Shown here: positions 4,006 through 24,794 of the stretch, in pieces | How the letters are laid out: each line of letters opens with the position of its first letter | How positions within the stretch are numbered: the stretch's first letter is position 1 | Source: an uncultured bacterium | GTDB taxonomy: Bacteria > Babelota > Babeliae > Babelales > Vermiphilaceae | Assembly: GCA_963707655.1 (NCBI GenBank) | Contig: OY970172.1 | Coordinates: 992,001-1,056,000 of the forward strand | Length of the DNA: 64,000 bases | Direction of reading: 5' to 3' | Program-made: the position numbers and the translations under genes | Notes under the pieces: generated by a model | Database searches by the model: none | What the model was told of the DNA's origin: nothing | Seen by the model: the letters and a program-made list of their open reading frames with translations, nothing else

Positions 4006-4082
4006 GTGCCCGTAGCTCAGCTGGATAGAGCGACAGACTTCTAATCTGTAGGTCGTAGGTTCGACTCCTACCGGGCACACCA
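4006..4082 (+). tRNA. tRNA-Arg(UCU)
   Basis: GTGCCCG/CGGGCAC acceptor stem, D arm AGCTCAGCTGGATAGAGC, anticodon arm ACAGA-CTTCTAA-TCTGT, GGTTCGACTCC T arm, encoded CCA. Confidence 0.97.
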
Positions 4083-5537
4083 CTTTCCAGTTTTTACTGT
4101 TTCCAATATCTCATTAAATACCGGTTTCAGCTGTATATCGAGCTTTTCATCTTTATAAGAGCAGTTCGAAACTAGAATATTGATCAATCGGCGTTTTTGT
4201 TCCGCATCTTGCTTTTGAAACAGTACAATCGCCTTTCTTGAGAGTTCTAAGACCAGATTCGCATTTTCAAGATAATTCTTATCGGCTCTTTGAAGCGCCA
4301 GAAGCTTTAAAGCTAAACGCTCTTTTTCTTCTATCCATTTTGATGCATGAGACTGCCAGAATTCTTCACTAATTTTTTTATCAATTTTATCCAGATATGC
4401 TTGATCGATTCTGTTCTGAAGAAATTTTATTTGTCGCTCTGTTTGTTGAACCAGCTTATTATGATAATCAACCTTTTCCTTTAAGCTCGATCGAAGACTC
4501 TCCATAATGATTTCCCGAGCTTGCTCTGAAATAGCTATATTTCTTAATATCCCCTCAAGCTGCGTTTCAAGAATCTCTTGCTTCAAATAAACCTGCTGAC
4601 AGTTGCCTTTATGACCGGTACATCTGTAGTAGATATATTTCTCTTTTTTTATTTCGGCAGTTAAAGAACAACCGCATATACCGCATCTGATTAAATTGGT
4701 ATAAGGAAATAGGCCTTTTCTTGATTTGTTTTTGTATGGATTCTTAAGCATTGTCTGAACTTTATGAAATAGCTCCTTACTCACAATAGCTTCATGAGAG
4801 GCATTTTCATACCGTTTCCCTCTCCAAGAAAAAACCCCGGTATAGAAATCATTTTTTAAAATGATTTCTACATTGCTGCTGTAAAAATTTTTACCATTTC
4901 TATAGATCATGCCATCAGCAAGCATCTTTTTGCGTAAATTGAGTAAAGAGTAAGATCCTGTTGCATATAATTCAAACATTTTCTTAATGAATAGTGCAGC
5001 ATCAGGGTCAACAACGATAACCTTTTTACCATCAACTTTGGCATTCAAATAACCATAAGGAGCAATCGATGGGTAAGTTCCCTGAGCAGCTTTTTCCTGC
5101 ATACCCTTTTTCACTTCTTCTGAGAGATTATCGATGTAATTTTTGGCCATCAAGGCCTTGATGCCAAAAATGAATTTTTCATTAGAGCGAGATTCTCGGC
5201 TTAGAGTAGAGTTTTCTTTCACAAGGTGAATTGTAATATCCGTTTGTGAAGTCAACTTATCAATTAAAGCATAATCAGACATGTTACGTGTAAGTCGATC
5301 TGTTTTTTCAACAAGAATGTGTTTTATGGACTGATCTTCATGAATAAGATTCAGCATTTTGTTGAACTGTGTACGCCCGGTCTTTTTTGCAGTTTCAACA
5401 TCAGTAAATTTCCCCACAACCGTATAGCCATTCTTTAGGGCATACTCATTCAAGATCTTGAGTTGGGCGGGTATGGAAAACCCTTCGGCTTCTTGGTCTT
5501 TAGAGGAAACTCGAGCATAAATGAGCGCTTTGTTCAT
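4068..5537 (-). CDS. Large serine recombinase (integrase)
   Basis: YARVSS catalytic motif, DRLTR, recombinase domain (PYGY), zinc ribbon CGICGC..YYRC..C, coiled coil; last codons WCAR* overlap the tRNA 3' end. Confidence 0.95.
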   Translation of the reverse strand: MNKALIYARVSSKDQEAEGFSIPAQLKILNEYALKNGYTVVGKFTDVETAKKTGRTQFNKMLNLIHEDQSIKHILVEKTDRLTRNMSDYALIDKLTSQTDITIHLVKENSTLSRESRSNEKFIFGIKALMAKNYIDNLSEEVKKGMQEKAAQGTYPSIAPYGYLNAKVDGKKVIVVDPDAALFIKKMFELYATGSYSLLNLRKKMLADGMIYRNGKNFYSSNVEIILKNDFYTGVFSWRGKRYENASHEAIVSKELFHKVQTMLKNPYKNKSRKGLFPYTNLIRCGICGCSLTAEIKKEKYIYYRCTGHKGNCQQVYLKQEILETQLEGILRNIAISEQAREIIMESLRSSLKEKVDYHNKLVQQTERQIKFLQNRIDQAYLDKIDKKISEEFWQSHASKWIEEKERLALKLLALQRADKNYLENANLVLELSRKAIVLFQKQDAEQKRRLINILVSNCSYKDEKLDIQLKPVFNEILETVKTGKWCAR

Positions 5538-5548
5538 AGCTGTATACC

Positions 5549-5716
5549 TTATTTGCTCAAAATTCCTATTTTTTTGTCCTCTTCCAGGTGGTTTTTGATC
5601 GCTTCAACCACCAATTCCTTCATAGTTTTACCTTTAATGGCGGCAAAAGCTTTAAACTTTTTATGGTCTTCTTCAGGGATATCAATGGTAATTCGAGATA
5701 AATTTTGTTTTTGCAT
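5549..5716 (-). CDS. Small ribbon-helix-helix (ParG-like) DNA-binding protein, not in ORF track
   Basis: Manual translation MQKQNLSRITIDIPEEDHKKFKAFAAIKGKTMKELVVEAIKNHLEEDKKIGILSK*; directly upstream of and co-oriented with the recombinase. Confidence 0.75.
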   Translation of the reverse strand: MQKQNLSRITIDIPEEDHKKFKAFAAIKGKTMKELVVEAIKNHLEEDKKIGILSK

Positions 5717-5800
5717 AAAAAAATCCAATATTTACGAGACATTTTAATAGCTAATGATACAATAAAGATATAAAGAAATAAAGAAATACTTGGGGGTTTT

Positions 5801-6664
5801 GTGAATATATTCAGATATATATCGAATTTATTTGATAAGGGCGTCAATTTAAAGCCCTCTATTGAGAAAAAAATCACTATCAATAATGAACCTGATTCTA
5901 AAGAGACACGCAAAAAGAGTGCTCAAAGGGTCAGAAATATCTATGATCCCTTGTCTACCAAGCCTTATAAGCTAAGTCGTAGCAAAATAGAGCTTTTCAT
6001 GCGTTGTAAGCGTTGTTTTTATATTGATCGTCGATTAGGAGTTGGGCATCCTGACGGATATCCATTTTCTCTAAATATTGCAGTCGATGAACTTTTGAAA
6101 AAAGAATTCGATATTTTTCGTCTAGAACAAAAGCCGCACCCTCTCTGCCTCGAAAATAATGTAAATGCGATTCCATTTAAGCACGAAAACTTAGAAAGCT
6201 GGCGTAAATCGCTCCATGAGGGCGTTCAATACCATGTTCCTAATACAAATCTTCTCATCCATGGTGGCCTTGATGATGTTTGGATTAATCAGGATACTGG
6301 TGAACTTCTAGTCGTTGATTACAAAGCTACCTCAAAAAACGGAGAAATAACTCTAGATGCCGATTGGCAAATTGGTTATAAGCGCCAAGCTGAAATCTAT
6401 CAGTGGCTTTTACGTAAAAATGACTTCACGGTATCTAATACTGCCTATTTTGTTTACTGCAATGGTAAAAAAGACATGCCACTGTTTGATAAAAAACTGC
6501 ACTTTGAGGTTACCTTACTGCCTTATGTAGGGAACGATTCGTGGGTGGAAGAAGCAGTTAATGGAGCTTACAGATGTCTTCAAACTAACACTATCCCTGC
6601 AGCAGAAAAGTCATGTGACTATTGTCAGTATTGGAACGGTGTCACTAACCACTTAATAAAATAA
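5801..6664 (+). CDS. PD-(D/E)XK nuclease family protein (Cas4/AddB-like)
   Basis: LSRSKI..CKRC, GGLDD, VVDYK, QAEIY, C-terminal CDYC cysteines. Confidence 0.85.
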   Translation: MNIFRYISNLFDKGVNLKPSIEKKITINNEPDSKETRKKSAQRVRNIYDPLSTKPYKLSRSKIELFMRCKRCFYIDRRLGVGHPDGYPFSLNIAVDELLKKEFDIFRLEQKPHPLCLENNVNAIPFKHENLESWRKSLHEGVQYHVPNTNLLIHGGLDDVWINQDTGELLVVDYKATSKNGEITLDADWQIGYKRQAEIYQWLLRKNDFTVSNTAYFVYCNGKKDMPLFDKKLHFEVTLLPYVGNDSWVEEAVNGAYRCLQTNTIPAAEKSCDYCQYWNGVTNHLIK

Positions 6665-6699
6665 CCATCAAATTTAAAAGATGTATTGATAAAGTAAAT

Positions 6700-9600
6700 A
6701 TGATCTCTCCAAAACACCTCAAAGCTACTTATTTTTCCTCAAAAGGACTATTTCATAACCTTTCTAGCTTTACAAGCTTGGAAAATCGGATAGCCAATCT
6801 TCCTGAAATTGAACGTGGAGATGCCTTTGAAGTCTTTGCTGAGGCCTATCTCAAAACCCAATCCCTTCATCAAGTCGAGGAGATATGGCCAGAAAAGTCG
6901 CTGCCTCAAAGTCTACGTGAATTACTTAATATTCCTTCTGACGCTGGTATCGATGGGGTTTTTAAGACATCTTCTGGTCATTATAAGGCTTACCAGGTTA
7001 AGTTTAGGTCGAACAGAGGCTCTCTAAGCTGGGGTGGTGATAGTTTGGGTAATTTCTTTGGTCAGGCTGATAGAGTGAGTGAGCGAATACTTTTTACCAA
7101 TTCAATGGATTTATCCGATCTAGCTGCCTCTCGCGTCAATTTTTATTCTATCAAGGGGAATGAGCTAGATTGCCTTGAGCCTTCAGATTTTAAAACCATA
7201 GAAGATTGGCTTAAAACGGGAGTTGCTCGACGAGAAAGGCTAAAGCCCAAAGACCATCAGCAACAAGCTATAAATGCGATTATAGATGAACTTAGCGTAA
7301 AAGATCGAACGACGGCTATTATGGCGTGCGGAACTGGCAAAACCCTTGTCGCGCTTAGAGCTGCTGAAAAACTTCAAGCCAAGACGATCCTGGTTCTGTT
7401 GCCATCACTTGCCTTAATAAGGCAGACGCTTCATGATTGGGCGCGGGATCATGGCTGGGAGAAATTTCACTTTTTATGTGTTTGTTCTGACCATACTGTC
7501 GTTAATGATGAAAGCGAAATGATCTTGTTTCAGCGAGATTTAGATTTTGCTGTTACAACTCAACCGGAAGAAATTGCAGCTTTTCTCAACAATGGTAATG
7601 TAGCGCCTAAAATTATATTTTCTACCTATCAATCCTGTCGAATGGTAGCCCAAGCGATGCCAGGCAATTTTGCTTTTGATCTAGCTATTTTTGATGAAGC
7701 ACATAAAACAGCTTCTCGTTTGGCGACAAATCATGCTTTTGCGTTAAGCGAAAACAATATTGCAATCAAGAAGAGATTATTTTTAACTGCAACACCCCGA
7801 CACTATAACATTGATGTAAAAGACAAGTTTGGGGATAACCAGCTAGTTTTTTCGATGGATGATGAGACTATTTATGGCCGTGTCGTGTATAAACTTTCAT
7901 TTAGAGCTGCCGTTGAGCAGGGCCTCATCTGTGATTACAAAGTACTTATCTCCGTAATCACCTCTGATATGTTGAATCGCGAGCTGCTTAAGCGTGGCGA
8001 GGTATTGATTGATGGTGATATCATCAAGGCGCAACGCATTGCAAATATTTTAGCGATACAAAATGCCGTAGAACAATATGGCGTTAAGCGAATCTTCTCC
8101 TTCCATAGTTCGATATCAGCGGCTAAATCATTTACCGCTAAAACCAATGAAGGCGTAGGCGCATACCTGACTGATTTCGCGACGATGCATGTGAGCGGTG
8201 AGATGTCGTCAAGCAAGCGAGATGCTATTTTGAGTGAATTTCGCGATGCAGAGAAGGCACTAATTTCAAACGCTCGTTGTTTAACTGAGGGTGTAAACGT
8301 ACCAGCAGTTGACATGGTTGTTTTTGTTTCACCTAAGAGAAGTAAAGTTGATATTGCACAGGCTGCCGGTCGTGCAATGCGTAAGCATCCAGGCAAAGAG
8401 CGTGGCTATATTTTGATCCCATTATTCATGCAAGACGCAGGACAAGAAGAGCTAGAGCAGGCGCTTGCAAAAACAAAATTTGATACAGTCTGGGACGTGC
8501 TTCAGGCAATGTGCGAACAGGATGAGAGTTTAGTGGAAATTATCGCTAAGCTCAGAGAAGCTCGTGGCAGGATACTTGGTGTTAATGATAGTAGGCTGAG
8601 GGAGCGCGTAGAGATACTTGGACCAGAACTCGCCTTAAAGAGCTTGCGTGATGCAATTACAACAAGGATGATTGATAGGCTTGGTTTATCTTGGGATGAA
8701 AGATTTGGACAACTGGTTAGATTTAAAGAAGAGAGTGGCCATTGTTTGGTCCCTAATCGATATCCAGAAAATCCTGGTCTTGGGCAATGGGTACAAAAAA
8801 ATCGATGGGATTACAAAAAAAATGCGCTGGGATCTGAGCGTATTAAAAGATTAAACGAGATAAATTTTGCGTGGGATTATGAGGAGGCAATATGGAATAC
8901 ACGATACTTAGATCTTTGTCATTTTCAACAAATTAACGGTCATTGTAATGTGCCTCGTAATTATCATGATAGGCAGTTGGAATATTGGGTAGGCACTCAG
9001 CGAGTTTCCTATAAAAAAGGTAAGTTATCCAGTATTCAGATAAAACAGTTAGAAAAAATAGGGTTTGTCTGGGATTGTATTGAGGAAAACTGGCATAGCA
9101 ACTATTCGATGCTCGCTGAATTCAAACAAAAAAATGGTCATTTTGTCGTTCCAAAAGATACGCGCGAGAATAAGCAATTAGCTACTTGGGTTTCTGCTCA
9201 GAGAAAACTTCAGAAAAAAGGTAATCTATCTTCAGAAAAAATTTATTTACTTGAACAAATTAACTTTATGTGGGATCCGGTAAAGGCAATCCTCGAGGAG
9301 AGATTTTCCCAAATACTAAGTTTTTTTGAAAAAAATGGACACTGTAATGTTCCCGACAGCTATGACGAGATAGTTCCTGGATTGTGTTCCTGGCTTCGGT
9401 CTAGAAGAAATTTATATCGGAAAAATTTGCTAGATATTGATCAGATAAAACGCCTAGAGGAAATGAAAATTAAGTGGGACCCTTTTGATGCTAATTGGGA
9501 AGAGCAATTCGAAGCTTTAGTTCTTTACAAGTCGAAGAACGGCCATACCTCTGTGTCTAAAAAATATCATGAAAGCCCATCTTTGGGATTATGGGTGTTA

Positions 9601-11160
9601 CGTCAACGATCAAAATATCGTGAGGGAAGCCTAGCAAAAGAACGCGTTGAGCGACTAAATAGCTTGGGCTTCGAGTGGGAATTGCCTAAATTAAAAAAGG
9701 ACGTTGTAGCACAAGAAAGAAAGTCATATTCTGAGATTTGGGAAGAAAGATTTATCTTGTTGCAGCAATATAGAGATATCCATAATCATTGTAATGTACC
9801 TCAAAATTATCAAGATAAATCGCTTGCCATGTGGGTTGGAACGCTGCGTACACTCTATAACAAAAGGAGTCCACGACTTTCGGCTGAAAAAATCAAGAAG
9901 CTTGATGCCATTGGATTCGACTGGGAGCCTACGACATCTCAGTGGGAAAATATGTTCTTAAAATTGCGTGAATTTAAACGCGTTTACGGACATTGTAATG
10001 TGCCGAGAAGCCAACGGCTTCTTGCTACATGGGTGGGCGTGCAACGTAAGCAGCATAAGAAAAATAGCATGATCCCTACCCGCATAAGTAGATTGAATGA
10101 AATCGGTTTTATATGGGACGTTAAAAAAGAATACTGGCATAAAATGTTTCATGAATTAAAGAAATTTATTGAAATTAATGGGCACTGTAATGTTTTTAGA
10201 ACAGGCAAGCTGGGCAATTGGGTTGCAAACCAGAGAGGTAATTATAAACGAGGAACGTTACCGTCTGCTCAAATTAACAAACTTAATGAAATAAATTTTG
10301 TTTTTGTCCCCTATGCTACAGCTTGGGAGAAAAATTATAGTGATTTATGCCTGTTTGTTAGGGAAAATGGGCATTGCATAATTACGTCTGAAACCCTTGT
10401 GAGTTCCCCACTCCTTACTTGGGCTCATAACCAACGTTCTGATTACAAAAATGGGAACCTATTCATAGAACAAATTAAAAAACTTAATGATATTGGTTTT
10501 GTTTGGGATTTCTTGGCTTATAAATGGGAAAAAAACTTTGAGGAGTTGCTGAAATTCAAAAGTGTTCATGGGCATTGCAACGTTCCTGGTAAGTTCAAAG
10601 AAAACATTTCCTTATCTCATTTCGTTGTTGCACTTCGTAAAAATTATAAAAAGGGAATTTTGTCTAAAGAACAGGTTAAACGGCTAAATGATCTCGGCTT
10701 TATTTGGGATGTTTTAGAAGAGCAATGGGAAAAGAAATATCAAGACTTAATCAAGTTCCATGAAATTTATAGCCACTGCAATGTTCCAAATGATTATAGT
10801 GATCAAGGGTTACTCTCTTGGATAAAAAATCAACGTACTTATAAAAAATTAGGCAAGTTATCTCCAGAGCGAGTTTGCAAACTAGATGCAATTGGGTTTG
10901 TTTGGTATGTATTAGATACTTCTTGGGATGATGCATTTACAGCTTTATGTTTATTTAAGAACACTTATGGGCACACTAAAGTTCCTGCAACGCGCGTTAT
11001 TAACAATATTGCTTTAGGTAATTGGGTCAGAACGCAACGTGCAGCTCATCAAAATAATAAGCTTACTAAAGAACGTTTTGAAAAATTACAGAGCATAGAT
11101 TTTTCTTGGGCCATTATGGCACGATCTCAAAAACAAACATCCAAACTATCTATGGAGTAG
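6700..11160 (+). CDS. Mrr-like nuclease / SF2 helicase / 12x helicase-associated (HA) repeat protein
   Basis: GDAFE..DAGIDG..QVK nuclease motif; MACGTGKT, DEAH, TAT, QAAGRAMR helicase motifs; 12 repeats of W....L..F....GHC.VP...L..W...QR. Confidence 0.9.
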   Translation: MISPKHLKATYFSSKGLFHNLSSFTSLENRIANLPEIERGDAFEVFAEAYLKTQSLHQVEEIWPEKSLPQSLRELLNIPSDAGIDGVFKTSSGHYKAYQVKFRSNRGSLSWGGDSLGNFFGQADRVSERILFTNSMDLSDLAASRVNFYSIKGNELDCLEPSDFKTIEDWLKTGVARRERLKPKDHQQQAINAIIDELSVKDRTTAIMACGTGKTLVALRAAEKLQAKTILVLLPSLALIRQTLHDWARDHGWEKFHFLCVCSDHTVVNDESEMILFQRDLDFAVTTQPEEIAAFLNNGNVAPKIIFSTYQSCRMVAQAMPGNFAFDLAIFDEAHKTASRLATNHAFALSENNIAIKKRLFLTATPRHYNIDVKDKFGDNQLVFSMDDETIYGRVVYKLSFRAAVEQGLICDYKVLISVITSDMLNRELLKRGEVLIDGDIIKAQRIANILAIQNAVEQYGVKRIFSFHSSISAAKSFTAKTNEGVGAYLTDFATMHVSGEMSSSKRDAILSEFRDAEKALISNARCLTEGVNVPAVDMVVFVSPKRSKVDIAQAAGRAMRKHPGKERGYILIPLFMQDAGQEELEQALAKTKFDTVWDVLQAMCEQDESLVEIIAKLREARGRILGVNDSRLRERVEILGPELALKSLRDAITTRMIDRLGLSWDERFGQLVRFKEESGHCLVPNRYPENPGLGQWVQKNRWDYKKNALGSERIKRLNEINFAWDYEEAIWNTRYLDLCHFQQINGHCNVPRNYHDRQLEYWVGTQRVSYKKGKLSSIQIKQLEKIGFVWDCIEENWHSNYSMLAEFKQKNGHFVVPKDTRENKQLATWVSAQRKLQKKGNLSSEKIYLLEQINFMWDPVKAILEERFSQILSFFEKNGHCNVPDSYDEIVPGLCSWLRSRRNLYRKNLLDIDQIKRLEEMKIKWDPFDANWEEQFEALVLYKSKNGHTSVSKKYHESPSLGLWVLRQRSKYREGSLAKERVERLNSLGFEWELPKLKKDVVAQERKSYSEIWEERFILLQQYRDIHNHCNVPQNYQDKSLAMWVGTLRTLYNKRSPRLSAEKIKKLDAIGFDWEPTTSQWENMFLKLREFKRVYGHCNVPRSQRLLATWVGVQRKQHKKNSMIPTRISRLNEIGFIWDVKKEYWHKMFHELKKFIEINGHCNVFRTGKLGNWVANQRGNYKRGTLPSAQINKLNEINFVFVPYATAWEKNYSDLCLFVRENGHCIITSETLVSSPLLTWAHNQRSDYKNGNLFIEQIKKLNDIGFVWDFLAYKWEKNFEELLKFKSVHGHCNVPGKFKENISLSHFVVALRKNYKKGILSKEQVKRLNDLGFIWDVLEEQWEKKYQDLIKFHEIYSHCNVPNDYSDQGLLSWIKNQRTYKKLGKLSPERVCKLDAIGFVWYVLDTSWDDAFTALCLFKNTYGHTKVPATRVINNIALGNWVRTQRAAHQNNKLTKERFEKLQSIDFSWAIMARSQKQTSKLSME

Positions 11161-12228
11161 TTTTTTAAGCGCAACAATTTCTTCTGGCGCTAAATCGAAT
11201 TCTTTGTTTTTATCTAATGATCTCATTATTTCTCCCTGCCTATATTCATCTACGCTGCCATAGCTGGTGAATGTTGTTAATGGATTATTATGACCTATAT
11301 TTTGACTCCATACCTTAAATTCTTCAGGAGTTTTGCACAACTTGTAACCTAATTGAGCTACGGTGTGACGAAATGAATGCGGATTGTAGTAGGTTAGTCC
11401 AGCATTGTGAAATGCCTCTTCTATCACTTTTCTCAATGATGTAGTTGATTTCCATGGAGTCGAACCAAGCAGCGTCCTGCTGAATTTATCATTAGCGCCC
11501 AGTGACAATGCGGTACAAGGAAATAATGGAGCTTCATCATCAAATAGCTTTTCCTTCTTTAAGAAATTTACCCACTCAATGAAGATTTGCTTAAGGAAAT
11601 CGCCTACAGGAAAAAAGTAGGTAATAATCATCTTGCTGTTTTTTGTTTTTACCTCGTCCGGACGTTGCTCTATGCGTTGCTCGTCCAAAAGTATGTGCTT
11701 AAGTTTGAATGAAGCTACTGCCTGAATTCTTGCGCCACTAATGGCCATAAAAGCTATGAGAGCACGGTTCCTTTTTTGAATCTCAGTTTCTGCCGGCATG
11801 CTTTTTACCACATGTTCTATTTGTTCCAAGGTAGGGTAACGTTTAGGTTTTTGAGTTCTTGCTATTCTGATGTCTTTATCTTGTAATTTGAAATACGCAA
11901 TTTCACATGAGCGTATTCTGCTTCTGTACCCAGGCTGCGTCACCAGCCACTTGAAAAAGTCACTTAGGCTTCTTGTGGCATGTAGCAGGTAGGTTTTACT
12001 GACAAGCGTTTCCGTGCGTTTTGATTTCTTTTGCATAAGATGTTTTTTGAATCCGATAGCGTCATTCTTGTTAAATAACTTGAAGCTTTTAAAGCCTGTG
12101 TATTCCTCATAAATATACAGGTAATTTTGGATGTTAATAGCAGTTGAGCTGCTCTTGCCATTAGCCTCCTTTTCCCATTCCAAATACTTACGTTTAATTC
12201 GTTCGTTTTCAGCGTTATATTTGATCAT
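11146..12228 (-). CDS. Tyrosine recombinase/integrase
   Basis: SGAR, KTK, HSFRH, IGH and SY catalytic-type residues. Confidence 0.9.
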   Translation of the reverse strand: MIKYNAENERIKRKYLEWEKEANGKSSSTAINIQNYLYIYEEYTGFKSFKLFNKNDAIGFKKHLMQKKSKRTETLVSKTYLLHATRSLSDFFKWLVTQPGYRSRIRSCEIAYFKLQDKDIRIARTQKPKRYPTLEQIEHVVKSMPAETEIQKRNRALIAFMAISGARIQAVASFKLKHILLDEQRIEQRPDEVKTKNSKMIITYFFPVGDFLKQIFIEWVNFLKKEKLFDDEAPLFPCTALSLGANDKFSRTLLGSTPWKSTTSLRKVIEEAFHNAGLTYYNPHSFRHTVAQLGYKLCKTPEEFKVWSQNIGHNNPLTTFTSYGSVDEYRQGEIMRSLDKNKEFDLAPEEIVALKKLLHR

Positions 12229-12240
12229 TTTAGTCTCCTT

Positions 12241-12732
12241 TTATTTGATGGTGGTAGCGGGGGTGTTGTCACACTCTATTAAATTTTTTTGCTCTAGCCC
12301 TTCTATATGGAAAATTTTCGTAAAGGTATCTATTTTTGAAGGCGATATTGTTCTATTGATGCTCGATCCACATATCTCACATATACCAACGAGATTTGTT
12401 CGTTTATTGTTATGGTGAATACGGACTTTGTTATCTTTGGTGTACCTTGCCTTCTGGCATTTGCAGCAGAACAATTGGTTTTCAGCGCAAGGTTTTTTTC
12501 TGCCAGCATTTCTTACACTTAGAAAGTCGATTAAATCTTGTCCCCATATCAAGTACGGTAGTTGATCATCTATTTTCTTGAGCCCCGTCTTTAACCAGTC
12601 GCTAATGGTACCTTTATCAACCTTGAGAAGCTCTTTGATCTCTTCTATGGAATAGGAGTTTGCGCTTCTGATGATTCTTGTATTAAATCTTTTCCGAAAC
12701 TTCTTTACGTTTTTCTGCTTTTTCTTGTACAT
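12241..12732 (-). CDS. HTH protein with C-terminal Cys pairs (possible excisionase-like partner)
   Basis: YSIEEIKELLKVDKGTISDW HTH-like segment; CCKC and CEIC. Confidence 0.65.
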   Translation of the reverse strand: MYKKKQKNVKKFRKRFNTRIIRSANSYSIEEIKELLKVDKGTISDWLKTGLKKIDDQLPYLIWGQDLIDFLSVRNAGRKKPCAENQLFCCKCQKARYTKDNKVRIHHNNKRTNLVGICEICGSSINRTISPSKIDTFTKIFHIEGLEQKNLIECDNTPATTIK

Positions 12733-12863
12733 CTTTCATATCCCACTCGAGCAATAAATCAAAAAGATCAATTAATGGCTGGATATCAGATTTGATTTCT
12801 AGCCTATCTCCTTGCTGAGTTATGCTTTGCTTTTTTATGTCCATCGGTACTACTCAACAAAAT

Positions 12864-13136
12864 TTAGAATGCGCTATTAATGATTGCTTCATATTTGCGT
12901 ATGACAACATCTTCAATTGCTGTCGCAATCTCTTTGTTGATAGGATGAAAAATGGGCATACTACTGTTTAATGTTTTTCGAGTTGGGTAGGTCAACCTAT
13001 AACCACCTTGTGGGCGTGTATATATTCCTATGGAAGCAAAATAAAATAAGCTATCGAACGTGAAGCTTGCAAACGCTACAAGGCCGTCCTTTGGCTTGAG
13101 TGGAATTATTTGTATTTCTGATACCTTGTCTTTCAT
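12864..13136 (-). CDS. SpoVG-family nucleic-acid-binding protein
   Basis: GLVAFASFTFD..IGIY..GGYRLTYP..IFHPINKE pattern typical of SpoVG. Confidence 0.7.
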   Translation of the reverse strand: MKDKVSEIQIIPLKPKDGLVAFASFTFDSLFYFASIGIYTRPQGGYRLTYPTRKTLNSSMPIFHPINKEIATAIEDVVIRKYEAIINSAF

Positions 13137-13218
13137 AATCTTTACCTTTTGGGTTAAGGGTTAAGCTTTAACTGAAGACAAGGTAATAAAAAGGGTTCGG
13201 GCCCGGCTGGGCCCAGAA

Positions 13219-14235
13219 TTAACAGAGATATTTTGGATTAATTTGAACAGTATCATCCTTGATAAGAAGAAATTCTGGATGACCCAACTTGGCTACATTC
13301 TTGTTTATGCTACGACAAATCTCATAAATATCCGGACCTTCCTTTGCGTGATCGTTGTTCATAATCTTTTCGCTAATAGTTTCAAATTTTAAGGCTCTTT
13401 TTTTGATAAAGCTGTCGCCAGGAATTAGCATTTTCAAAACGATACGCGAATCACTATTTTTTTTGAAATTCGTTGATCCATCATTAATTTTAAGCTTGCC
13501 ATTATTAGGGTCATAAGAAATTGTGTATTTCACTTTTTCTTGAGTTACAGCTAATTGCCTCTCAAAAAAATCAATCGTATATCTTAAAATACGATTCATA
13601 TGAACTCGCAAATCAGGAATATTTTCTTTCTTTAGTTCTTGCTTGCCTTGACCATAATTGATATAGATGCGTGCTAGCTTATCCCAGCTATACCAAATGC
13701 GAGTTTGTTGAATATCTTCAAGGCGATTTTTTTCGCTATTCCACAAATAGAAACTTGGTGTAAAAATACATTCTTGCACTCTCCCTTCTTCATCTAAAAC
13801 TGCGCTTTTTTTGAGAAGACATTTTGCCTCTTTCGAGTGATTTTCTGCCAATGACCAAACAAAATCTCTTAATATTCTGTATTTAGCTATCATAGGATTA
13901 CTAATTGCCGCCATGTTGCTATCGCGATATAGTTCGAAAGCAAAAACATCATTGAATATAGGGTGGTAGTTTTTGCCATATTTTTTTGTTTGGTAATCCC
14001 TATATTCATAATATGCCAACTCCATTTCATATTCTGCTGCTTCCGTTAGATCTTGTAATAGCTGAGCATTATTTTTTGCTTCCCCGAGTATTTTTGTATT
14101 TATATGCCCCAGGTCGACATTTTTATCGTACTCAGCCATAAAGTCATAGATGAGCAACCCAAATAAGTTAGGATCATCGATCTGATTATTGCAGAGTGAT
14201 TGTAGTTTATTAACATTAGACTGGTTTTGTTGCAT
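13219..14235 (-). CDS. Hypothetical protein, possible C-terminal winged helix
   Basis: 338 aa ORF; C-terminal DIYEICRSINK..INPKY. Confidence 0.6.
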   Translation of the reverse strand: MQQNQSNVNKLQSLCNNQIDDPNLFGLLIYDFMAEYDKNVDLGHINTKILGEAKNNAQLLQDLTEAAEYEMELAYYEYRDYQTKKYGKNYHPIFNDVFAFELYRDSNMAAISNPMIAKYRILRDFVWSLAENHSKEAKCLLKKSAVLDEEGRVQECIFTPSFYLWNSEKNRLEDIQQTRIWYSWDKLARIYINYGQGKQELKKENIPDLRVHMNRILRYTIDFFERQLAVTQEKVKYTISYDPNNGKLKINDGSTNFKKNSDSRIVLKMLIPGDSFIKKRALKFETISEKIMNNDHAKEGPDIYEICRSINKNVAKLGHPEFLLIKDDTVQINPKYLC

Positions 14236-14290
14236 CTTCTTTACCTCTTAAAATACGTTTTTTATATTCTAATCGGTAAAAGTAGATTCT

Positions 14291-14584
14291 CTAAGCAAAA
14301 AGTACCTGTTCTATCGCATTTATGTTAGTCTGTTCGAAGGTAAAAGTTCTAAAATAGTCCGATAGGGCACACCAGCCTTCGCTTATTAGTCGCCAAGGCT
14401 ATGGCGGACAGGCCGGGGGCAAGATAGAGCTCGGCGAAAGCCTGAAGAAGCTCGTGAGAGCGAAGACAGGCAAGCTTCGTCTGGCTGCCGCCAGCAACTT
14501 TTTCACCCATTCTTTGCATCTTCATAAATCCTTGGTATATCTACTAAGACTTTTTTTATAGGAATCTGACCTTTAGGGAGAACT
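14291..14584. repeat. Junction repeat 1: recombinase-tail arm, core GGGCACACCA (14365-14374), structured leader and RBS
   Basis: Homologous to junctions with cores at 17330, 20183, 22680, 25439 and 27919. Confidence 0.9.
14514..14541 (+). promoter_or_regulatory. Putative sigma70-type promoter, repeated before each toxin gene
   Basis: TTGCAT-N16-TATATC followed by GGGAG RBS; identical in all four toxin units. Confidence 0.4.
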
Positions 14585-16489
14585 ATGAAGATTATCATTC
14601 TGATCAGTATCTTACTACAAATAGTGGCTATCCAAGCGGTATATCCCAATCGAGAGTTGACGACAAACTGGGATACCTCAACGCGAAATCGAGGCATATC
14701 ACAAAATAGTCTTGCTAAGATGAACCGTGCTCAATATATAAAAAATATTGCCGGTATCAACAGCCATTCTTCTTTCACTCCCTCTCACATTACATCCGGA
14801 ACACCTGCATACACGATGCTGCATGAGCCGCACAAATGCGCATCGTGGCAGGGGAGTGACTATTGGAATGCAATTGTCCAGGCATTCGGGCTTAAAGCAT
14901 CAATAGACAAGAATTATTATATTCCGTTCGGACTGCGTGAGTATGGCTATACTAGTGATTCACAGATTTTGTATATTCATGACGACAATATAATCCGCAT
15001 TATGCAGCAGGGGAAACTTTATGATTACGACAATTTCTGGTGCTTTATTAGCCAGTTTGATTCGTATGAATCAACACTGTTGCAACTGTTTAACAATGGC
15101 ACGCAGCGCAGCCAGCTTTCTCAAAAAGCGCGGCAGAAAATGCAACAAGAATGCACTCGCATTACTGAAAAACAACTGACAAAAGAGCGGGAGCAACAGC
15201 AGCGGTATCAGGAAGAATCGGTACGAAAACATTTTCAAGGAGAGCTTCCAGTAATTGAAGATTCAGTTGATGAGCAACAAGAATTGCATGATATTGCCCA
15301 TACATATAATTTGCATAACAAAAATCATTATGAAACGCGTCTGGCTGCCCTTGAAGATGTGGTAAGTAATAGCAGATATACCCGTGACGTGTACACTCTC
15401 GATGATGATGTGATAAGGATTCTGTCACAATCAGAATGCGATGCCAAACAATATACGACCAATTATGGCAATCAATTGCAGCAAGTCATTCACCGTGAAT
15501 GCATCGATATTGTCTCGCAAACAGCGCAACTCTCTGTCCGCTCTCCTCTTTATGATTATAAAAATTCATTAGCTAATTTTACCGATTCGGCGCGTTCATA
15601 TAACCAGGAAGGCTCATCTGGCAAAGCGATGCAAATCAATGATTTTTGCTATGCATTGCTCGATTATGGCTCAGCCATTGTTGAGGGCATTGCCTGCGGT
15701 GTCATTGGTGCAGCCAAAGATATGATTAACCATCCAGTTCAAACAGCATTGTGCGTGGTGGCCAGTGAATATGTGTTGGCCTATCAATTACTTAAAGTCA
15801 CCACCAACCTTGCCTCCATCGGTATATGCTATGCCTTTGATAAAGAAGCCGGCGCGCAACAATGGCATGATTATATTGAGCCAATAACGAATGTGATCAG
15901 CGCTATCAACAATAAAGAGGTAACGCTGCGAAACGGCATTAAAGGAGTTGTTGCCGTTGGCACCGGCATATATGCGCAAGGCAAGATGCTGAAAGGTCTA
16001 AACTCTTTTTATAGCACAACAAAAGCAAAGGCTTTTGAGTTTGTCAAAAACAATCCGTTGGTAACTCCGACTGAATATATGTCCACTCCTGAGGGAGTAT
16101 TATTTAAGGCTATACGCAATGCTCAAGAAGGATTGAATGATATTTCAGGAGAGGTTAAATCAGCATTAGATGGTATCAAAAATGACTTGAAGATGCGTTT
16201 CGAACAGCGAAGCTTGCAGCACATGTTTAGTCGGCATGCAAAGGATTTTGGAATATGCAAAGCGTGGAACAAGGCCACAGCCGTCGAGTTTGAAAAAATA
16301 ATTTTTGACCACATAAACACTGTTCACCCGATTAAAGGTACTTATCGTGGTGTACAAGAGGTTTTGCATTATTTTGATAAAAACAGCGGCCTTAATGTTA
16401 TGACGGATAAGGCCGGATCTCTTATTGGCGGATGGAAGTTAAGTGAAGATCAAATTAAATATCTCTTGTCGACTGGAGCGCTAAAATAA
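14585..16489 (+). CDS. Secreted polymorphic toxin 1, colicin D-like C-terminal tip
   Basis: Signal peptide; core shared with three paralogs; tip HAKDFGI..EFEKII.DH..KGTYRG..YFD..GLNV..G.LIGGWKL resembles the colicin D tRNase domain. Confidence 0.82.
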   Translation: MKIIILISILLQIVAIQAVYPNRELTTNWDTSTRNRGISQNSLAKMNRAQYIKNIAGINSHSSFTPSHITSGTPAYTMLHEPHKCASWQGSDYWNAIVQAFGLKASIDKNYYIPFGLREYGYTSDSQILYIHDDNIIRIMQQGKLYDYDNFWCFISQFDSYESTLLQLFNNGTQRSQLSQKARQKMQQECTRITEKQLTKEREQQQRYQEESVRKHFQGELPVIEDSVDEQQELHDIAHTYNLHNKNHYETRLAALEDVVSNSRYTRDVYTLDDDVIRILSQSECDAKQYTTNYGNQLQQVIHRECIDIVSQTAQLSVRSPLYDYKNSLANFTDSARSYNQEGSSGKAMQINDFCYALLDYGSAIVEGIACGVIGAAKDMINHPVQTALCVVASEYVLAYQLLKVTTNLASIGICYAFDKEAGAQQWHDYIEPITNVISAINNKEVTLRNGIKGVVAVGTGIYAQGKMLKGLNSFYSTTKAKAFEFVKNNPLVTPTEYMSTPEGVLFKAIRNAQEGLNDISGEVKSALDGIKNDLKMRFEQRSLQHMFSRHAKDFGICKAWNKATAVEFEKIIFDHINTVHPIKGTYRGVQEVLHYFDKNSGLNVMTDKAGSLIGGWKLSEDQIKYLLSTGALK

Positions 16490-16490
16490 C

Positions 16491-16961
16491 ATGCCTGAAT
16501 ACTTTGACATCTCACTTATCATCGGAAAAAGTGAACTACAAAAACAGCAATTACAGGATTTTTTATTACACACCTTTAATCTACACGAAGAAGAAAACGA
16601 TAGCCTTCGCAATGAAATTTCAGCATTCAAAAATGTTATTCTTACCATCTATGAATCAGAGGAAATTAATTTTATAGAGTTTGGTATAAGTATTCCGAAA
16701 TGTGTTTTTCATAAAAAATCATTTGATAGAGAGTTTAATCCTATTGATTTATTTATTACGCGTTGTCTGAAAGAATGCAAATTCATTCGATTCGCTTTAT
16801 GTAGTTATGAAATGAATGCATACTATATCGGCAAATTACAAAGAATTGAAGATTTCACCCCGCTTTTTTTAGCGCATTTTCCTATCACTTACTCAAAAGA
16901 CCTGCACAATGAGTCATTTTCAAAAATAATTAATACAACGGCGCAGGACATTTTTGTTTAA
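16491..16961 (+). CDS. Putative immunity protein 1
   Basis: Starts 1 nt after the toxin stop; small; unique to this unit. Confidence 0.7.
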   Translation: MPEYFDISLIIGKSELQKQQLQDFLLHTFNLHEEENDSLRNEISAFKNVILTIYESEEINFIEFGISIPKCVFHKKSFDREFNPIDLFITRCLKECKFIRFALCSYEMNAYYIGKLQRIEDFTPLFLAHFPITYSKDLHNESFSKIINTTAQDIFV

Positions 16962-17002
16962 TGTGTTCAATAAAATGGTTGCTTATGTAGCGAGGTAAGG
17001 CC

Positions 17003-17209
17003 ATGCAAAATAGATTAACGAATGAAGAAGCTTTTAATTCCATGAGGCTTTTTTTGGAAGAATATTACAAACGAACATCATCCGATGATATTGGTTCGCT
17101 GTTGGGGGATTTAATTCTTTTAGCAGACCAAACAACAGCAGATCCAGCCGCTTGGGAAGATTGGATGGACTGCGTTAAAAAAGTTAAAGAGAAAGAATAT
17201 CCATTGTGA
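17003..17209 (+). CDS. Putative orphan immunity protein
   Basis: LT..AF..M..LE.Y.K.TSSD.I..LL......TTAD...W.DW shared with 62784..63161. Confidence 0.7.
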   Translation: MQNRLTNEEAFNSMRLFLEEYYKRTSSDDIGSLLGDLILLADQTTADPAAWEDWMDCVKKVKEKEYPL

Positions 17210-17246
17210 TGGAGGCATTTTTGAAGAGCATCTGTATTTAGTAGCT

Positions 17247-17551
17247 TTAGATACCTATCGCAAAAAGTATTTGCTTAATCTGACTTATGCTCAAGTCTTC
17301 ATAACAAAAGTTGCTGAAATAGTCCGATAGGGCACACCACTCTTCGTTTATTCCGCCGTCGCCAAGGCTATGGCGGACAGGCCGGGGGCAAGATAGAGCT
17401 CGGCGAAAGCCTGAAGAAGCTCGTGAGAGCGAAGACAGGCAAGCTTCGTCTGGCTGCCGCCAGCAACTTTTTTACCCATTCTTTGCATCTTCATAAATCC
17501 TTGGTATATCTACTAAGACTTTTTCCAGGAATCTAACTTTCAGGGAGAACT
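17247..17551. repeat. Junction repeat 2 (core 17330-17339)
   Basis: AAAAGTTGCTGAAATAGTCCGATAGGGCACACCA plus leader nearly identical to junction 1. Confidence 0.92.
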
Positions 17552-19483
17552 ATGAAGATTATTATTTTGATCGGCATTCTACTACAATCAGCAGCTATCC
17601 AAGCCGTGTATCCCACTAGAGAGTTAACAACAAACTGGGATATCTCAACGCGAAGTCGCGGCATATCACAAAATAGTCTTGATCACATGAACCGTCCTCA
17701 ATATGTAAAGGGCATTGCCTGCCTTGACCAGTGTCATGCGAAGCGCGACTCTGCGCGACCATCTTCTATACTTTTCACTAATCCAAAACAATGTGCTTAT
17801 TGGACATCATCTGATTATTATGCCGCTCTAGCCCATGACTATGGCATACCAATTACCATTGAAAACGCAGGGAGCATAGCAGAAGAGTTGCGTTATTACC
17901 ATTGCCCTCATGATCAAAGAAATTTTTTGTATATCCCCGAATACGTCATTACCAATATTATGCATCAAGAGAAGCTGTACGCTCATAAAAATTTCATCGA
18001 TTTTATAAAAAAATTTGATTGGTATGAGGATGAGTTATTGGCTCTGCATGATAAAGTTATGCACAGACACGATTCTTGGAAGTCATTTTTTAAAAAGAAG
18101 TTTTCAGATCAGGTGATAGCTGCACTAGTATCTGAGCGCAATCGAATTGTTAACGCAAGAAGAGACAAAAGAAAGCGCGAAGTTGAAGCCACCGTCATAA
18201 AAAATAATTTTCAAAGCGAGTTACCTGGCATCCAAGGGATGGTCAATGAGCAACAAGAGTTGCATGAGATTGCCAATACATATAACTTGCATAACAAAAA
18301 TCATTATGAAACTCGTCTGGCCGCGCTTGAAGATGTTTTGAACAGCAGAAGCTGCACGCAGCAATCGTACAGCTTCAACAATGATGCATTGACCTTGCTT
18401 TCACAAGTAGGGTGCAGTGCTGAACAGTATAAAACCAATTGCGGCAATCAACTGCAGCAGGTTATTCACCGTGAATGCATCGATATTGTCTCACAGGCAG
18501 CGCAACTTTCTGTGCATTCTCCCCTCTATGATTATAAAAATTCATTAGTTAATTTTACCGATTCGGCTCGTTCATATAATCAGGAAGGCTCGTCTGGCAG
18601 AGCGATGCAAATCAATGATTTTTGCTATGCATTACTCGATTATGGCTCGGCCATTGTTGAGGGCATTGCCTGTGGTGTCATTGGCGCAGCCAAAGATATG
18701 ATTAACCATCCAGTTCAGACAGCGCTGTGCGTAGTGGCCGGTGAATATGTGTTGGCCTATCAATTGCTTAAAGTCACCACTAACCTTGCCTCCATCGGAA
18801 TATCCTATGCCTTTGATAAAGAAGCCGGCGCGCAACAATGGCATGATTACATTGAGCCAATAACGAGCGTGATCAGCGCCATTACCAACAAAGAAATAAC
18901 CCTGCGTGACGGGATTAAAGGAGCAGTCGCTCTTGGCACCGGTATGTATGCGCAAGGCAAGATGCTTAAAGGACTGAACTCTTTTTACAATACAACAAAA
19001 ACAAAAGCTCTTGAATTCGTTAAAAATAATCCTTTGGCAACTCCTGCCGAATACATGACTACTTCTGACGGGGTATTGTTTAAAGCAACACAAGAGTCTT
19101 TATGCAATAAGTCTCAAAAGAACATCGAAAGTCATTTTAAGCAAGAAGTAGGTCAAACACAGACGTCGCTAGGTAGGCCTGCTTATTCTCTTCCTGCCAA
19201 GGTTGAACAAGCAATAGCATATGCCACAAATGATACAAAATTAAAACATTTTTTTGTTAACGAAATGCACGGATTTGAGCCATTGCTTGAGAAAATGAAT
19301 GGTGATCAAAAAAAACTTATCAGAGAAATCGTAAATGCCTTAACCAGAAACGCAATATTACCTACAGCTGGAGAATTCAAAAATATTCCGGTCAGCCTTG
19401 ATGGACAAGTTATACATGTTAGAGGTTTTGTGCATAATGACATTATTAAAATTGGTACTATGTTCATTCCAGAAGGAAAATAA
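17552..19483 (+). CDS. Secreted polymorphic toxin 2
   Basis: Signal peptide, conserved core, distinct tip (KHFF..MHG..VHVRGFVHNDIIKIGTMFIP-type). Confidence 0.8.
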   Translation: MKIIILIGILLQSAAIQAVYPTRELTTNWDISTRSRGISQNSLDHMNRPQYVKGIACLDQCHAKRDSARPSSILFTNPKQCAYWTSSDYYAALAHDYGIPITIENAGSIAEELRYYHCPHDQRNFLYIPEYVITNIMHQEKLYAHKNFIDFIKKFDWYEDELLALHDKVMHRHDSWKSFFKKKFSDQVIAALVSERNRIVNARRDKRKREVEATVIKNNFQSELPGIQGMVNEQQELHEIANTYNLHNKNHYETRLAALEDVLNSRSCTQQSYSFNNDALTLLSQVGCSAEQYKTNCGNQLQQVIHRECIDIVSQAAQLSVHSPLYDYKNSLVNFTDSARSYNQEGSSGRAMQINDFCYALLDYGSAIVEGIACGVIGAAKDMINHPVQTALCVVAGEYVLAYQLLKVTTNLASIGISYAFDKEAGAQQWHDYIEPITSVISAITNKEITLRDGIKGAVALGTGMYAQGKMLKGLNSFYNTTKTKALEFVKNNPLATPAEYMTTSDGVLFKATQESLCNKSQKNIESHFKQEVGQTQTSLGRPAYSLPAKVEQAIAYATNDTKLKHFFVNEMHGFEPLLEKMNGDQKKLIREIVNALTRNAILPTAGEFKNIPVSLDGQVIHVRGFVHNDIIKIGTMFIPEGK

Positions 19484-19485
19484 AT

Positions 19486-20040
19486 ATGCATTGGAAACAG
19501 AAGCTTGGAACGCTGGAGAAACAGAAAAAATGGGATGCTGCCATAGAATTAATGATCCATGTTATTGATGAGAATTCTGGGTCTATAGATCCGTATATTT
19601 ATATGAATTATTTACTTATGAATCTTTTGGTAGAAGAAGATTATGACAATGATAAATATAGCTATTACAAATTATTAATAAAAAAATATTTTGACGAATC
19701 TTATGCTAAATTTTCTGATAATGCTGAGTATCTTTTTTTCACTGCTTCCACCGCTCTAATGTCTGAGTGGCATTTTGATATTGATGTAAAAGATTATGAT
19801 GCAATGTTTAAAAAAGCTCTAGTCTTAGAACCCGATAATCTTCTTTATCAAGACTATTATTACACTATGCTAGATAAAACTATCCCAAGCAATAAAAAGG
19901 CCGCAGTAGAATATGCAAAAAAAATACTGGAACCAAAGTCTTCTATTCAAATAATATTGAATTCCAAAGGCGCTATAGGAGAACGCCTTTTGGGATTAAT
20001 GACAAATTGGAGCTTAAGGATTCTTGGCATGAAGCCTTGA
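19486..20040 (+). CDS. Putative immunity protein 2 (helical/TPR-like)
   Basis: 2 nt after the toxin stop; paralog of 24795..25355. Confidence 0.72.
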   Translation: MHWKQKLGTLEKQKKWDAAIELMIHVIDENSGSIDPYIYMNYLLMNLLVEEDYDNDKYSYYKLLIKKYFDESYAKFSDNAEYLFFTASTALMSEWHFDIDVKDYDAMFKKALVLEPDNLLYQDYYYTMLDKTIPSNKKAAVEYAKKILEPKSSIQIILNSKGAIGERLLGLMTNWSLRILGMKP

Positions 20041-20102
20041 GGCTCTTCCAAGCACACCTTAACAAAGTATATAGGGATAAAATATCCTTGATGGCTTTTT
20101 TG

Positions 20103-20404
20103 CTAATGACCAATATCACCCAAAGACCATATTGCCAAAACTAACGAATTGTCCACAGAGAAGTTGCTGAAATAGACCGATAGGGCACACCACTCTTCGT
20201 TTATTCCGCCGTCGCCAAGGCTATGGCGGACAGGCTGGGGGCAAGATAGAGCTCGGCGAAAGCCTGAAGAAGCTCGTGAGAGCGAAGACAGGCAAGCTTC
20301 GTCTGGCTGCCGCCAGCAACTTTTTTACCCATTCTTTGCATCTTCATAAATCCTTGGTATATCTACTAAGACTTTTTCCAGGAATCTAACTTTCAGGGAG
20401 AACT
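20103..20404. repeat. Junction repeat 3 (core 20183-20192)
   Basis: AAGTTGCTGAAATAGACCGATAGGGCACACCA plus leader. Confidence 0.92.
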
Positions 20405-22303: not shown

Positions 22304-22614
22304 AACTTAATATAAACCTGAATAATGGGATTATTGTCTATGATGAATTTAATATTGATCCCAATCTCCCGCTAAAAGATCAAATTATGGAATTGCAAGA
22401 AGATCTTCTACAAATACAATATGATAATAATGTAGTTATTGACGTTGGATGGTATCCTGAACTTGATCCATCCGGAAGCTTTATTATTAATATAATAAAA
22501 GATTCTGATTGGTCTCATCCTATATATAAAAAAACAGTTAAATTAAAAAATATTGTTGCTGAACTACAAAAAGCAATTGATTTGGCTCTCACATTAAATG
22601 GTCGATCTATCTAA
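22300..22614 (+). CDS. Putative immunity protein 3
   Basis: ATGA overlap with the toxin stop; EDLLQIQY..IDVGWYP motif; acidic, 104 aa. Confidence 0.72.
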   Translation: MKLNINLNNGIIVYDEFNIDPNLPLKDQIMELQEDLLQIQYDNNVVIDVGWYPELDPSGSFIINIIKDSDWSHPIYKKTVKLKNIVAELQKAIDLALTLNGRSI

Positions 22615-22864
22615 ACACAATTTCTTGACCTGATTGAGAACATCAGCTTCAAAAGAAAAGTTGCTGAAATAGACCGATAGGGCACACCAGCCTTCGCTTA
22701 TTCCGTTGTCGCCAAGGCTATGGCTGACATGGCCGGGCAAGAGAAGACTCGGCAAGCTTCGTCTGGCTGCCGCCAGCAACTTTTTTACCCATTCTTTGCA
22801 TCTTCATAAATCCTTGGTATATCTACTAAGACTTTTTCCAGGAATCTAACTTTCAGGGAGAACT
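22594..22864. repeat. Junction repeat 4 (core 22680-22689, shorter leader)
   Basis: AAAAGTTGCTGAAATAGACCGATAGGGCACACCA plus leader lacking an internal segment present in junctions 1-3. Confidence 0.92.
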
Positions 22865-24788: not shown

Positions 24789-24794
24789 ATAACT

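Follow-up and report, generated by a model that had tools for sequence, protein, structure and literature searches.

The window analysed here, a stretch of 64,000 nucleotides from an uncultured bacterium of the Babelota (family Vermiphilaceae; contig OY970172.1, positions 992,001 to 1,056,000), very probably contains an integrative element which sits at the end of a tRNA gene and carries its attachment site, attP, inside the gene of its own large serine recombinase (LSR). Region 4083-14374 would constitute this 10.3-kb element, inserted at the 3' end of tRNA-Arg(TCT) by the LSR that it encodes, with attP lying inside the 3' end of the recombinase gene (Table 1). Integration exchanges a conserved 27-residue tail of the LSR for four residues read from the antisense of the tRNA.

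ARAGORN calls one tRNA in the window, which is the sole tRNA-Arg(TCT) among the 38 tRNAs of the 1.09-Mb single-contig genome, and an Rfam scan of 3800-28600 detects nothing beyond this tRNA, an antisense 'Plastid-ycf2' row of 38.2 bits falling below its gathering score of 65.7. The LSR stop codon (4068-4070) lies inside the tRNA gene, and the final 15 nt of the LSR gene (K-W-C-A-R-stop) are the antisense of the tRNA 3' end, giving the C-terminus ...KTGKWCAR, where the Trp codon TGG is present because it is the antisense of the tRNA CCA, the tRNA 3' end being copied in attP. The protein is a typical member of its class, with the domains Resolvase (PF00239, 2.5e-27, residues 4-154), Recombinase (PF07508, 5.5e-17) and Zn_ribbon_recom (PF13408, 8.2e-09); its catalytic cluster (R9, S11 and S12) is invariant across 38 and across 125 aligned relatives, while the zinc-ribbon cysteines (C285, C288, C306 and C313) are invariant in the alignment of 38. 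The identity between the core copies at 4073-4082 and 14365-14374 ends exactly at both edges, and this 10-mer has six copies in the window, all on the + strand, compared with 0.06 expected (100 shuffles). The sequence-only reading had claimed that the integrated open reading frame (ORF) ends KTGKWCAR on tRNA antisense, that joining the cores continues the same frame for 23 further residues, and that the recombinase gene accordingly spans attP and has its C-terminus replaced upon integration. The first claim agrees with the ORF and ARAGORN coordinates, the second with the coordinate-joined coding sequence of the excised form (512 aa with a single terminal stop, against 489 aa), and the third is borne out by the anatomy together with the tails of homologues.

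According to the proposed mechanism, the P' arm of attP would be formed by the codons ...VKTGK-W-C-A, including the copy of the tRNA 3' end, and the P arm by the next ~10 codons, L-S-D-Y-F-R-T-F. Integration would part the last 23 codons from the gene and leave them at attR, and the frame would enter the antisense tRNA and stop after WCAR. Excision would restore the 512-aa form, which would be the form that performs integration.

A homologue search yields 5689 proteins at E <= 1e-20, and the C-termini of the best 120 (57-85% identical; P0001 is the window's own protein) are of three kinds. Some are short, such as NWCAR, NWCAQ, NWWS or NWRP; others continue as ...WCARQDSNLRPTD, a tRNA acceptor and T arm read in antisense; and ten of the 120 (P0008, P0012, P0019, P0029, P0046, P0082, P0120, P0066, P0073 and P0080) are long forms aligning with the rebuilt tail, four of them with a length of exactly 512 aa. 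The names attached to homologues (Chromulinivorax, Babeliales and Dependentiae) put the organism among the Dependentiae. A tail of the type W..L.D.FRT, for which the sequence-only reading had proposed a search as W.....D.FRT, is present at equal length in homologues, but its F-R-T part coincides with a T-loop-like DNA word and does not by itself indicate a function of the protein. When the last 68 residues of P0008 serve as the query of a word-based search, three proteins only are retrieved, a sensitivity too low to add to the long forms, and in phage and plasmid collections the best matches are at most 32% identical, with no named close relative.

The long form P0082 is encoded by L016, a 9811-bp metagenomic contig with an exact 127-nt terminal overlap, equivalent to a circle of 9684 bp, which suggests that it is circular, a tandem repeat being the alternative. 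L016 shares the core TGGTGTGCCC, has no tRNA adjoining its recombinase gene, and also holds a primase and a SpoVG homologue 52% identical to that of the window. As P0082 is encoded there without an adjacent tRNA, the long form exists in nature in an apparently excised or episomal state. In another Dependentiae genome (L095), the same 10-mer occurs at a distance of 10.7 kb from the LSR, with the open tail WCALSEYLRNFNSDMSTMFAVKSLVASA (WCALSEYLRNF...VASA, then a stop) directly after it. At a further tRNA-Arg(TCT) gene (L006, G005:C9), a SpoVG-like frame continues straight into ...KETRNWCARQDSNLRPTD, and this locus looks like the decayed remains of a similar element from which most of the LSR gene has gone. 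Two viral contigs, L178 and L180, carry the attP form (KWW..VRTF/L) of a sub-clade of these LSRs, the gene of L178 containing an internal stop; integrated members of this sub-clade (L078, L082, L094 and L148) end in KWWRLGDSNS and a stop within tRNA-Ala(TGC) of gut Melainabacteria-type genomes.

The same layout is widely distributed. Among 160 related loci (80 metagenomic and 80 from species-representative genomes, 36-75% identical), in which the LSR frame was extended to its stop and tRNAs were called by ARAGORN, 19 reach a contig end before the stop; the frame stops inside an antisense tRNA in 91 of the 141 complete loci, and in six more it runs through or stops near one. The commonest targets are Asn-GTT (27), Gln-CTG (24) and Asp-GTC (10), followed by Arg, Ala, Ile, Pro, Ser, Glu, His, Trp and Leu tRNAs, and the loci are spread over many phyla, including Alphaproteobacteria (Mesorhizobium, Caulobacter and Rhodopseudomonas), Acidobacteriota, Planctomycetota, Myxococcota and Melainabacteria. 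The tRNA end is TGG in 85 of the 91 loci, in frame as Trp in 83 of these 85, and the other six tRNAs have no encoded CCA. The attP-in-LSR layout is a property of a large clade.

A second element of ~7.3 kb is present in the same genome (G000:C1:244946-252212; L216 947-8213), carrying a DUF2779 protein and several other ORFs. Its LSR, 32% identical to that of the window, stops (WRS, then stop) inside a single-copy tRNA-Asp(GTC), and a tail-like frame WRYLIDAFGTHDVEFSFSLQSIQTVFSLL... (WRYLIDAFGTH...) lies 7.3 kb from it, behind a 6-nt core copy. No core copy of at least 8 nt is found upstream of this LSR, the candidate attR at G000:C1:244946 resting on the 6 nt and the tail-like frame.

The DNA words of the attachment sites follow a simple rule when the T of TGG is taken as position 1 and counting proceeds along the coding strand of the LSR. 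In the integrated relatives, the best match to TTCGAAC starts at position 18 in 84 of 85, and the residues D-S-N of integrated tails arise because a standard tRNA sets the antisense TTCGAAC at positions 18-24. In the 11 loci of attP form (the window, L016, L020, L055, L071 and the viral contigs L178, L180, L181, L185, L184 and L202), the word at position 23 is the best match in eight, second or tied in two, and absent in L184. The match at 23 is 7/7 in L071, L180, L185 and L202, 6/7 in L055, L178 (whose anchor lies one codon early, its printed position 26 being 23) and L181, and 5/7 in L020; the word of the window, TTAGAAC, matches at 6/7 and ranks behind a perfect copy at 37, while that of L016 (5/7) ties with another site. 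By our own arithmetic, a match of at least 5/7 at one fixed place has a chance of ~0.013 per sequence. The perfect copy in the window sits 14 bp past the P-arm word, and L071 matches 6 of 7 at the same place.

For the Listeria LI integrase, Rutherford et al. 2013 placed the zinc-ribbon-domain motif at positions 16-24 of the attP half-site and 5 bp closer to the centre in attB (PMC3783163). The offset between 23 in attP and 18 in the tRNA equals this published 5-bp shift exactly, and the T-loop word is, by this correspondence, the predicted zinc-ribbon motif by which the enzyme recognises tRNA genes. Most likely the zinc-ribbon domain reads the T-loop word TTCGAA in the tRNA and, in attP, the same word displaced outward by 5 bp, in keeping with the model for the LI integrase; a domain reading the near-universal TTCGAA would explain both the many tRNA targets and the conserved F-R-T. 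Immediately inward of the word, 8 of 12 positions agree between the P and B arms of the window, which would fit binding of both arms by the recombinase domain. The codons under F/L/I/V-R-T are NTT-CGA-ACN, with Arg encoded by CGA in six, AGA in three and CGC in one of ten loci from genomes of 33-59% GC. The conservation of F-R-T alone is consequently no proof of protein function, since these residues are encoded by a T-loop-like word fixed in the attP arm.

Several observations weigh against this reading of region 4083-14374. Neither an excised circle nor an empty site of the window's own element is seen: the best-matching public sequencing run contains 0.18 of the sampled words, one 180-nt Logan contig (3964-4143) spans attL, and the junctions 14374-4083 and 4082-14375 are not found in the 150-350-nt Logan contigs of four runs, whose depth of 2-7 is too thin to judge excision. 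The empty-site comparison failed, as the closest genome of the same genus, G001, has unrelated DNA past its tRNA-Arg and the contig ends 425 nt on; element flanks are unconserved at the DNA level. No tRNA is called at the stop in 44 of the 141 complete loci, many of which still read W..DSN..RP or have a contig end within 100 nt. A search for attR in the 54 integrated relatives whose upstream flank reaches 3 kb or more (flanks up to 10 kb) finds a core of at least 10 nt plus an open frame only in L095 and L167, of which only the tail of L095 is convincing, the remaining loci showing mostly 7-mers or nothing within the 10-kb flank. Core identity extends over 10 nt in the window element but over no more than 6 nt in the second one. 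Only a weak copy of the word, TTTTTAC, is present in the window's P' arm. The crossover would lie within the 10 bp of the core, but the two estimates of its place are 2 bp apart: the TTCG symmetry in the B and B' arms puts it between 4075 and 4076, and the spacing of the LI integrase between about 4077 and 4078, while the 6-nt identity of the second element allows the last 6 nt only. The tail has diverged faster than the body, 9 of 26 tail residues being identical between the window and L016 compared with 303 of 485 body residues. The predicted fold discussed below is that of P0008, standing in for the joined protein of the window, and its alignment of 125 sequences includes only 18 with a tail.

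The tail may be a passive by-product, which is quite possible, if a little short of an even chance: attP overlaps the gene end, the residues reflect the DNA site and weak constraints against harm, and the 489-aa and 512-aa forms act alike. The best-conserved tail residues (W, C-A, L, D and F-R-T) indeed fall on the core and the P arm, where the Arg codon CGA or AGA completes TTCGAA or TTAGAA, and the faster divergence of the tail points in the same direction. The five tail codons identical between the window and L016 are all within the first six (core and inner arm). Integrated forms bear arbitrary tails dictated by the tRNA, from 3 to > 20 residues long, and catalysis therefore cannot need one particular tail. 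In addition, solved LSRs align with the AlphaFold2 model of P0008 (74% identical to the window LSR; mean pLDDT 90.6) from residue 1 to ~481, two phiC31 rows reaching 496, so that the tail is an addition to the canonical LSR fold; the matches include 9dxh_A (VIA-align Z 19.1 over 456 residues), Bxb1 9iu2_A (16.6) and 4kis_B (16.4), with a Foldseek E of 5e-18.

Against a purely passive tail stands its distal part. More than 30 bp separate the distal ~15 residues from the core, which places them beyond a half-site of ~25 bp, and they retain the length (512 aa in four homologues and in the joined form) and the pattern I/L-x-x-h-h-x-A (I-x-x-h-h-x-A) over genomes of 33-59% GC by means of synonymous changes. 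The aligned tails of L181 and L185 show nine positions with the same residue but a different codon, seven identical codons and 12 replacements, with QHSVTI..H.ALCA in common, and in the distal tail of the window and L016 the residues A, I and Q are kept, all by different codons. Fifteen of 22 aligned long forms, from several distant lineages, end in Ala, often as LLxA, LCA, LAA or MAA. In the model of P0008 the tail folds into two helices (486-495 and 503-511), and block means of pLDDT are 83-87 for residues 491-512; the coiled-coil helices of its zinc-ribbon domain are predicted at 338-385 and 391-442. Orphan tails at 20192 and 22689 have decayed ends, having lost the distal pattern yet kept the P arm. 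Only the distal ~15 residues show conservation at the protein level, and they appear to be selected as protein; that they make the long and short forms differ in function is possible, though less likely than not.

The mobile unit may also be larger than 4083-14374, a rather unlikely alternative in which excision proceeds via 17339, 20192, 22689 or 27928, toxin-immunity cassettes are gained or dropped, and the regained tail is set by the junction used. The six copies of the 10-mer agree with this, as do the orphan tails that precede four of the copies, including that at 14374. Behind 17339, 20192 and 22689 (minus strand) these tails read WCALSDYFSNFCYEDLSISQIKQILFAIGI, WCALSVYFSNFSVDNSLVLAIWSLGDIGH and WCALSVYFSNFSFEADVLNQVKKLCLDRSTI, respectively, each followed by a stop; they are of FSN type with a nearly identical ~25-nt P arm, and the tail at 27928 has diverged. 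To the right of the cores, GC-rich segments of ~110 nt (14375-14490, 17340-17455 and 20193-20308) are nearly identical, the first ~55 nt being present at 22690 as well. The large proteins of the cassettes are 59-96% identical over their N-terminal ~400-550 aa and differ in their C-termini. An array of this sort could equally grow by unequal homologous crossing-over between repeats, however, and the tail at 14374 is of FRT type, in contrast to the FSN type of the other three, which probably arrived with other elements and of which two are decayed in their distal parts. The sequence-only reading placed attR at 14365-14374; this is supported by the FRTF-type tail, which resembles those of P0008 and P0012, but the site is not unique, four more core junctions being present downstream. 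Because the FRT type of the tail at 14374 is also that of P0008 and P0012, the long forms most closely related to the window's LSR, this attR most likely belongs with that LSR, and for the same reason the LSR element is most likely the latest arrival in the 23.8-kb stack (4083-27928).

Two functional roles for the tail are each improbable, and to a similar degree. In the first, the tail is a stability switch, a C-terminal degradation signal of the episomal form (non-polar ...L-h-A or ...AA) being removed by integration, much like the integration-dependent immunity of mycobacteriophages. The Ala ends in 15 of 22 long forms presumably resemble ssrA-type tags, and their occurrence in several distant lineages is in favour, but the end is predicted to be helical and ordered instead of a free tag, and the other seven long forms end in I, I, I, C, Y, R and Q. 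In the second, the tail sets directionality by favouring attP x attB synapsis or blocking attL x attR, as a substitute for or a partner of a recombination directionality factor. It comes after the zinc-ribbon and coiled-coil region which controls LSR directionality (PMC3783163), it is ordered in the P0008 model, and the Pfam scan recognises no directionality factor in the element, such factors being too diverse to exclude. On the other hand, integrated tails vary freely in length and sequence, and known LSRs control direction without such a tail.

That the 10-bp repeat is due to chance or is the footprint of the element's tyrosine recombinase (11146-12228), with the LSR unrelated to integration, is scarcely credible even though that gene is present and tRNA 3' ends are classic targets of tyrosine integrases (PMC4383910), because the continued frame agrees with homologues at each residue, attP likewise lies in the LSR gene of L016 with no tyrosine recombinase found among its 10 scanned ORFs, 91 of 141 LSR relatives stop inside a tRNA, and the 5-bp offset fits the site logic of LSRs.

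Table 1. Features of the tRNA-end element and of the units beyond it (positions in the window)
Feature	Position	Strand	Basis and remarks
tRNA-Arg(TCT)	4006..4082	+	ARAGORN; Rfam tRNA 74.2 bits; B arm of attL, final nucleotides come from the element
Gene of the large serine recombinase as integrated, 489 aa, C-terminus KWCAR and stop	4068..5537	-	Pfam domains, ORF call
Core copy 1, GGGCACACCA, at attL	4073..4082	+	Crossover would lie somewhere inside
Core copy 2, GGGCACACCA, at attR of the LSR-bearing unit	14365..14374	+	Exact repeat
Orphan 3' end of the LSR gene, WCALSDYFRTFTFEQTNINAIEQVLFA and stop	14291..14374	-	Joins the gene only in the excised circle; first ~10 codons double as attP P arm
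tRNA T-loop word GTTCGAC	4059..4065	+	Coding positions 18-24; proposed zinc-ribbon-domain motif of B arm
T-loop-like word TTAGAAC	14346..14352	-	Coding positions 23-29; proposed zinc-ribbon-domain motif of P arm; encodes part of F-R-T
Second, perfect word TTCGAAC	14332..14338	-	Coding positions 37-43; encodes conserved F-E of the tail
PD-(D/E)XK / Cas4-like nuclease, cargo	5801..6664	+	Pfam PDDEXK_1 2.9e-12; PADLOC Cas4 1e-07
SF2 helicase, 1486 aa, 12 helicase-associated (HA) repeats, cargo	6700..11160	+	Pfam HA 4.3e-211, ResIII, Helicase_C
Tyrosine recombinase, 360 aa, cargo	11146..12228	-	Pfam Phage_integrase 1.4e-07
Three genes that share the direction of the LSR in the circle: 163 aa (weak HTH match), SpoVG-like 90 aa (12864-13136), 338 aa	12241..14235	-	Pfam/ORF
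Four further units, each ending in a core copy	14375..27928	+	Cores 17330-17339, 20183-20192, 22680-22689, 27919-27928

The remaining genes of the element are listed in Table 1. Over its first 600 aa the helicase is similar to the N-terminal region of restriction enzymes of type IIG / type I (PADLOC REase_MTase_IIG, 2.4e-95), and the nuclease and helicase (5801-11160) may form a defence module. The tyrosine recombinase may resolve circle multimers or be the remnant of another element.

Each unit of the downstream stack encodes a 520-643-aa protein followed by a small variable ORF, and the large protein of the first unit has a Colicin_D domain (5.7e-22); with their conserved N-terminal parts and variable C-termini, the units have the appearance of polymorphic toxin-immunity cassettes set in an array. 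PEBP, AhpC and DJ-1/PfpI genes are additionally present in the last unit. The GC-rich segment right of the cores precedes each toxin-like gene and folds better than 200/200 shuffles (z -3.2), and it matches no Rfam family. It starts with NNNTTCGC, its TTCG at +4 to +7 past the core being found also at the attR of the second element and in L095, and it may be the B' arm. The stack may have grown by repeated integration, by pick-up and drop-off via alternative attL x attR pairs, or by unequal crossing-over.

A literature search, with subscription journals outside its coverage, found no description of this tRNA-targeting LSR clade or of the T-loop offset. The presence of attP within an integrase gene is reportedly known from IntP/IntX of myxophage Mx8 and from the integrase of Sulfolobus virus SSV1, in which integration is said to alter or split the gene. 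These two precedents, named in the sequence-only reading, concern tyrosine recombinases of other chemistry and site architecture, and the SSV1 gene is reportedly split in two without a short tail swap. The precedent among serine recombinases, which that reading omitted, is dsiB at ssrA in Dehalococcoides (PMC3146451), so that the idea of attP in the gene is not new for this class. According to McMurdie et al. 2011, DsiB of the ssrA-specific islands has its stop outside the island, in the antisense of the tRNA-like 3' end, the islands occur in tandem, and dsiB is suggested to be fully functional perhaps only on the circular element (PMC3146451). The gene layout at a tRNA-like target and the tandem islands described there are shared with the present element, whereas the target there is a tmRNA (ssrA) and here tRNAs, a second small serine recombinase, DsiA, lies beside DsiB and none is present here, and the divergent C-termini reported there differ from the conserved tail of fixed length and the T-loop offset found here.

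With the Listeria LI (A118-type) integrase, as treated by Rutherford et al. 2013, the present LSRs share a motif in both half-sites that lies 5 bp closer to the centre in attB, with starts of 23 and 18 here (PMC3783163). They differ in using the T-loop of the tRNA as the proposed motif, in having a tRNA gene as the location of the site and in an attP that is coding sequence, the zinc-ribbon assignment being made from spacing only. In the integration-dependent immunity of mycobacteriophage BPs and its relatives, attP also lies within an ORF and integration removes a C-terminal segment and changes the protein, the removed segment being a demonstrated degradation tag on the repressor and the integrase a tyrosine one (PMC3694055). 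The ORF in question is the repressor there and the integrase itself here, and degradation is hypothetical in the present case.

The element at tRNA-Arg(TCT) belongs to a large LSR clade that is found across many phyla and whose sites follow a simple logic, the T-loop word standing at 18 in attB and 23 in attP, and this offset is an added mechanistic lead on top of the known attP-in-integrase layout. In a broader and speculative view, which is unlikely, a bacteria-wide clade of LSRs would read the T-loop through the zinc-ribbon domain and hop between tRNAs by changing a few acceptor-stem nucleotides of attP; attP, having to mimic the tRNA end, would be locked in the gene, and the enzyme would have turned this into a state sensor, the 512-aa episomal form with its ordered helical tail and the tail-less chromosomal form differing in stability or directionality, and cassettes would be picked up and dropped in the window in an integron-like manner. 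For the annotation of such integrases, gene callers should be expected to report false C-termini derived from tRNAs. If true, the T-loop logic would explain the retargeting of one integrase family among tRNAs, and integrases for genome engineering might be aimed at sites which are present in every cell.

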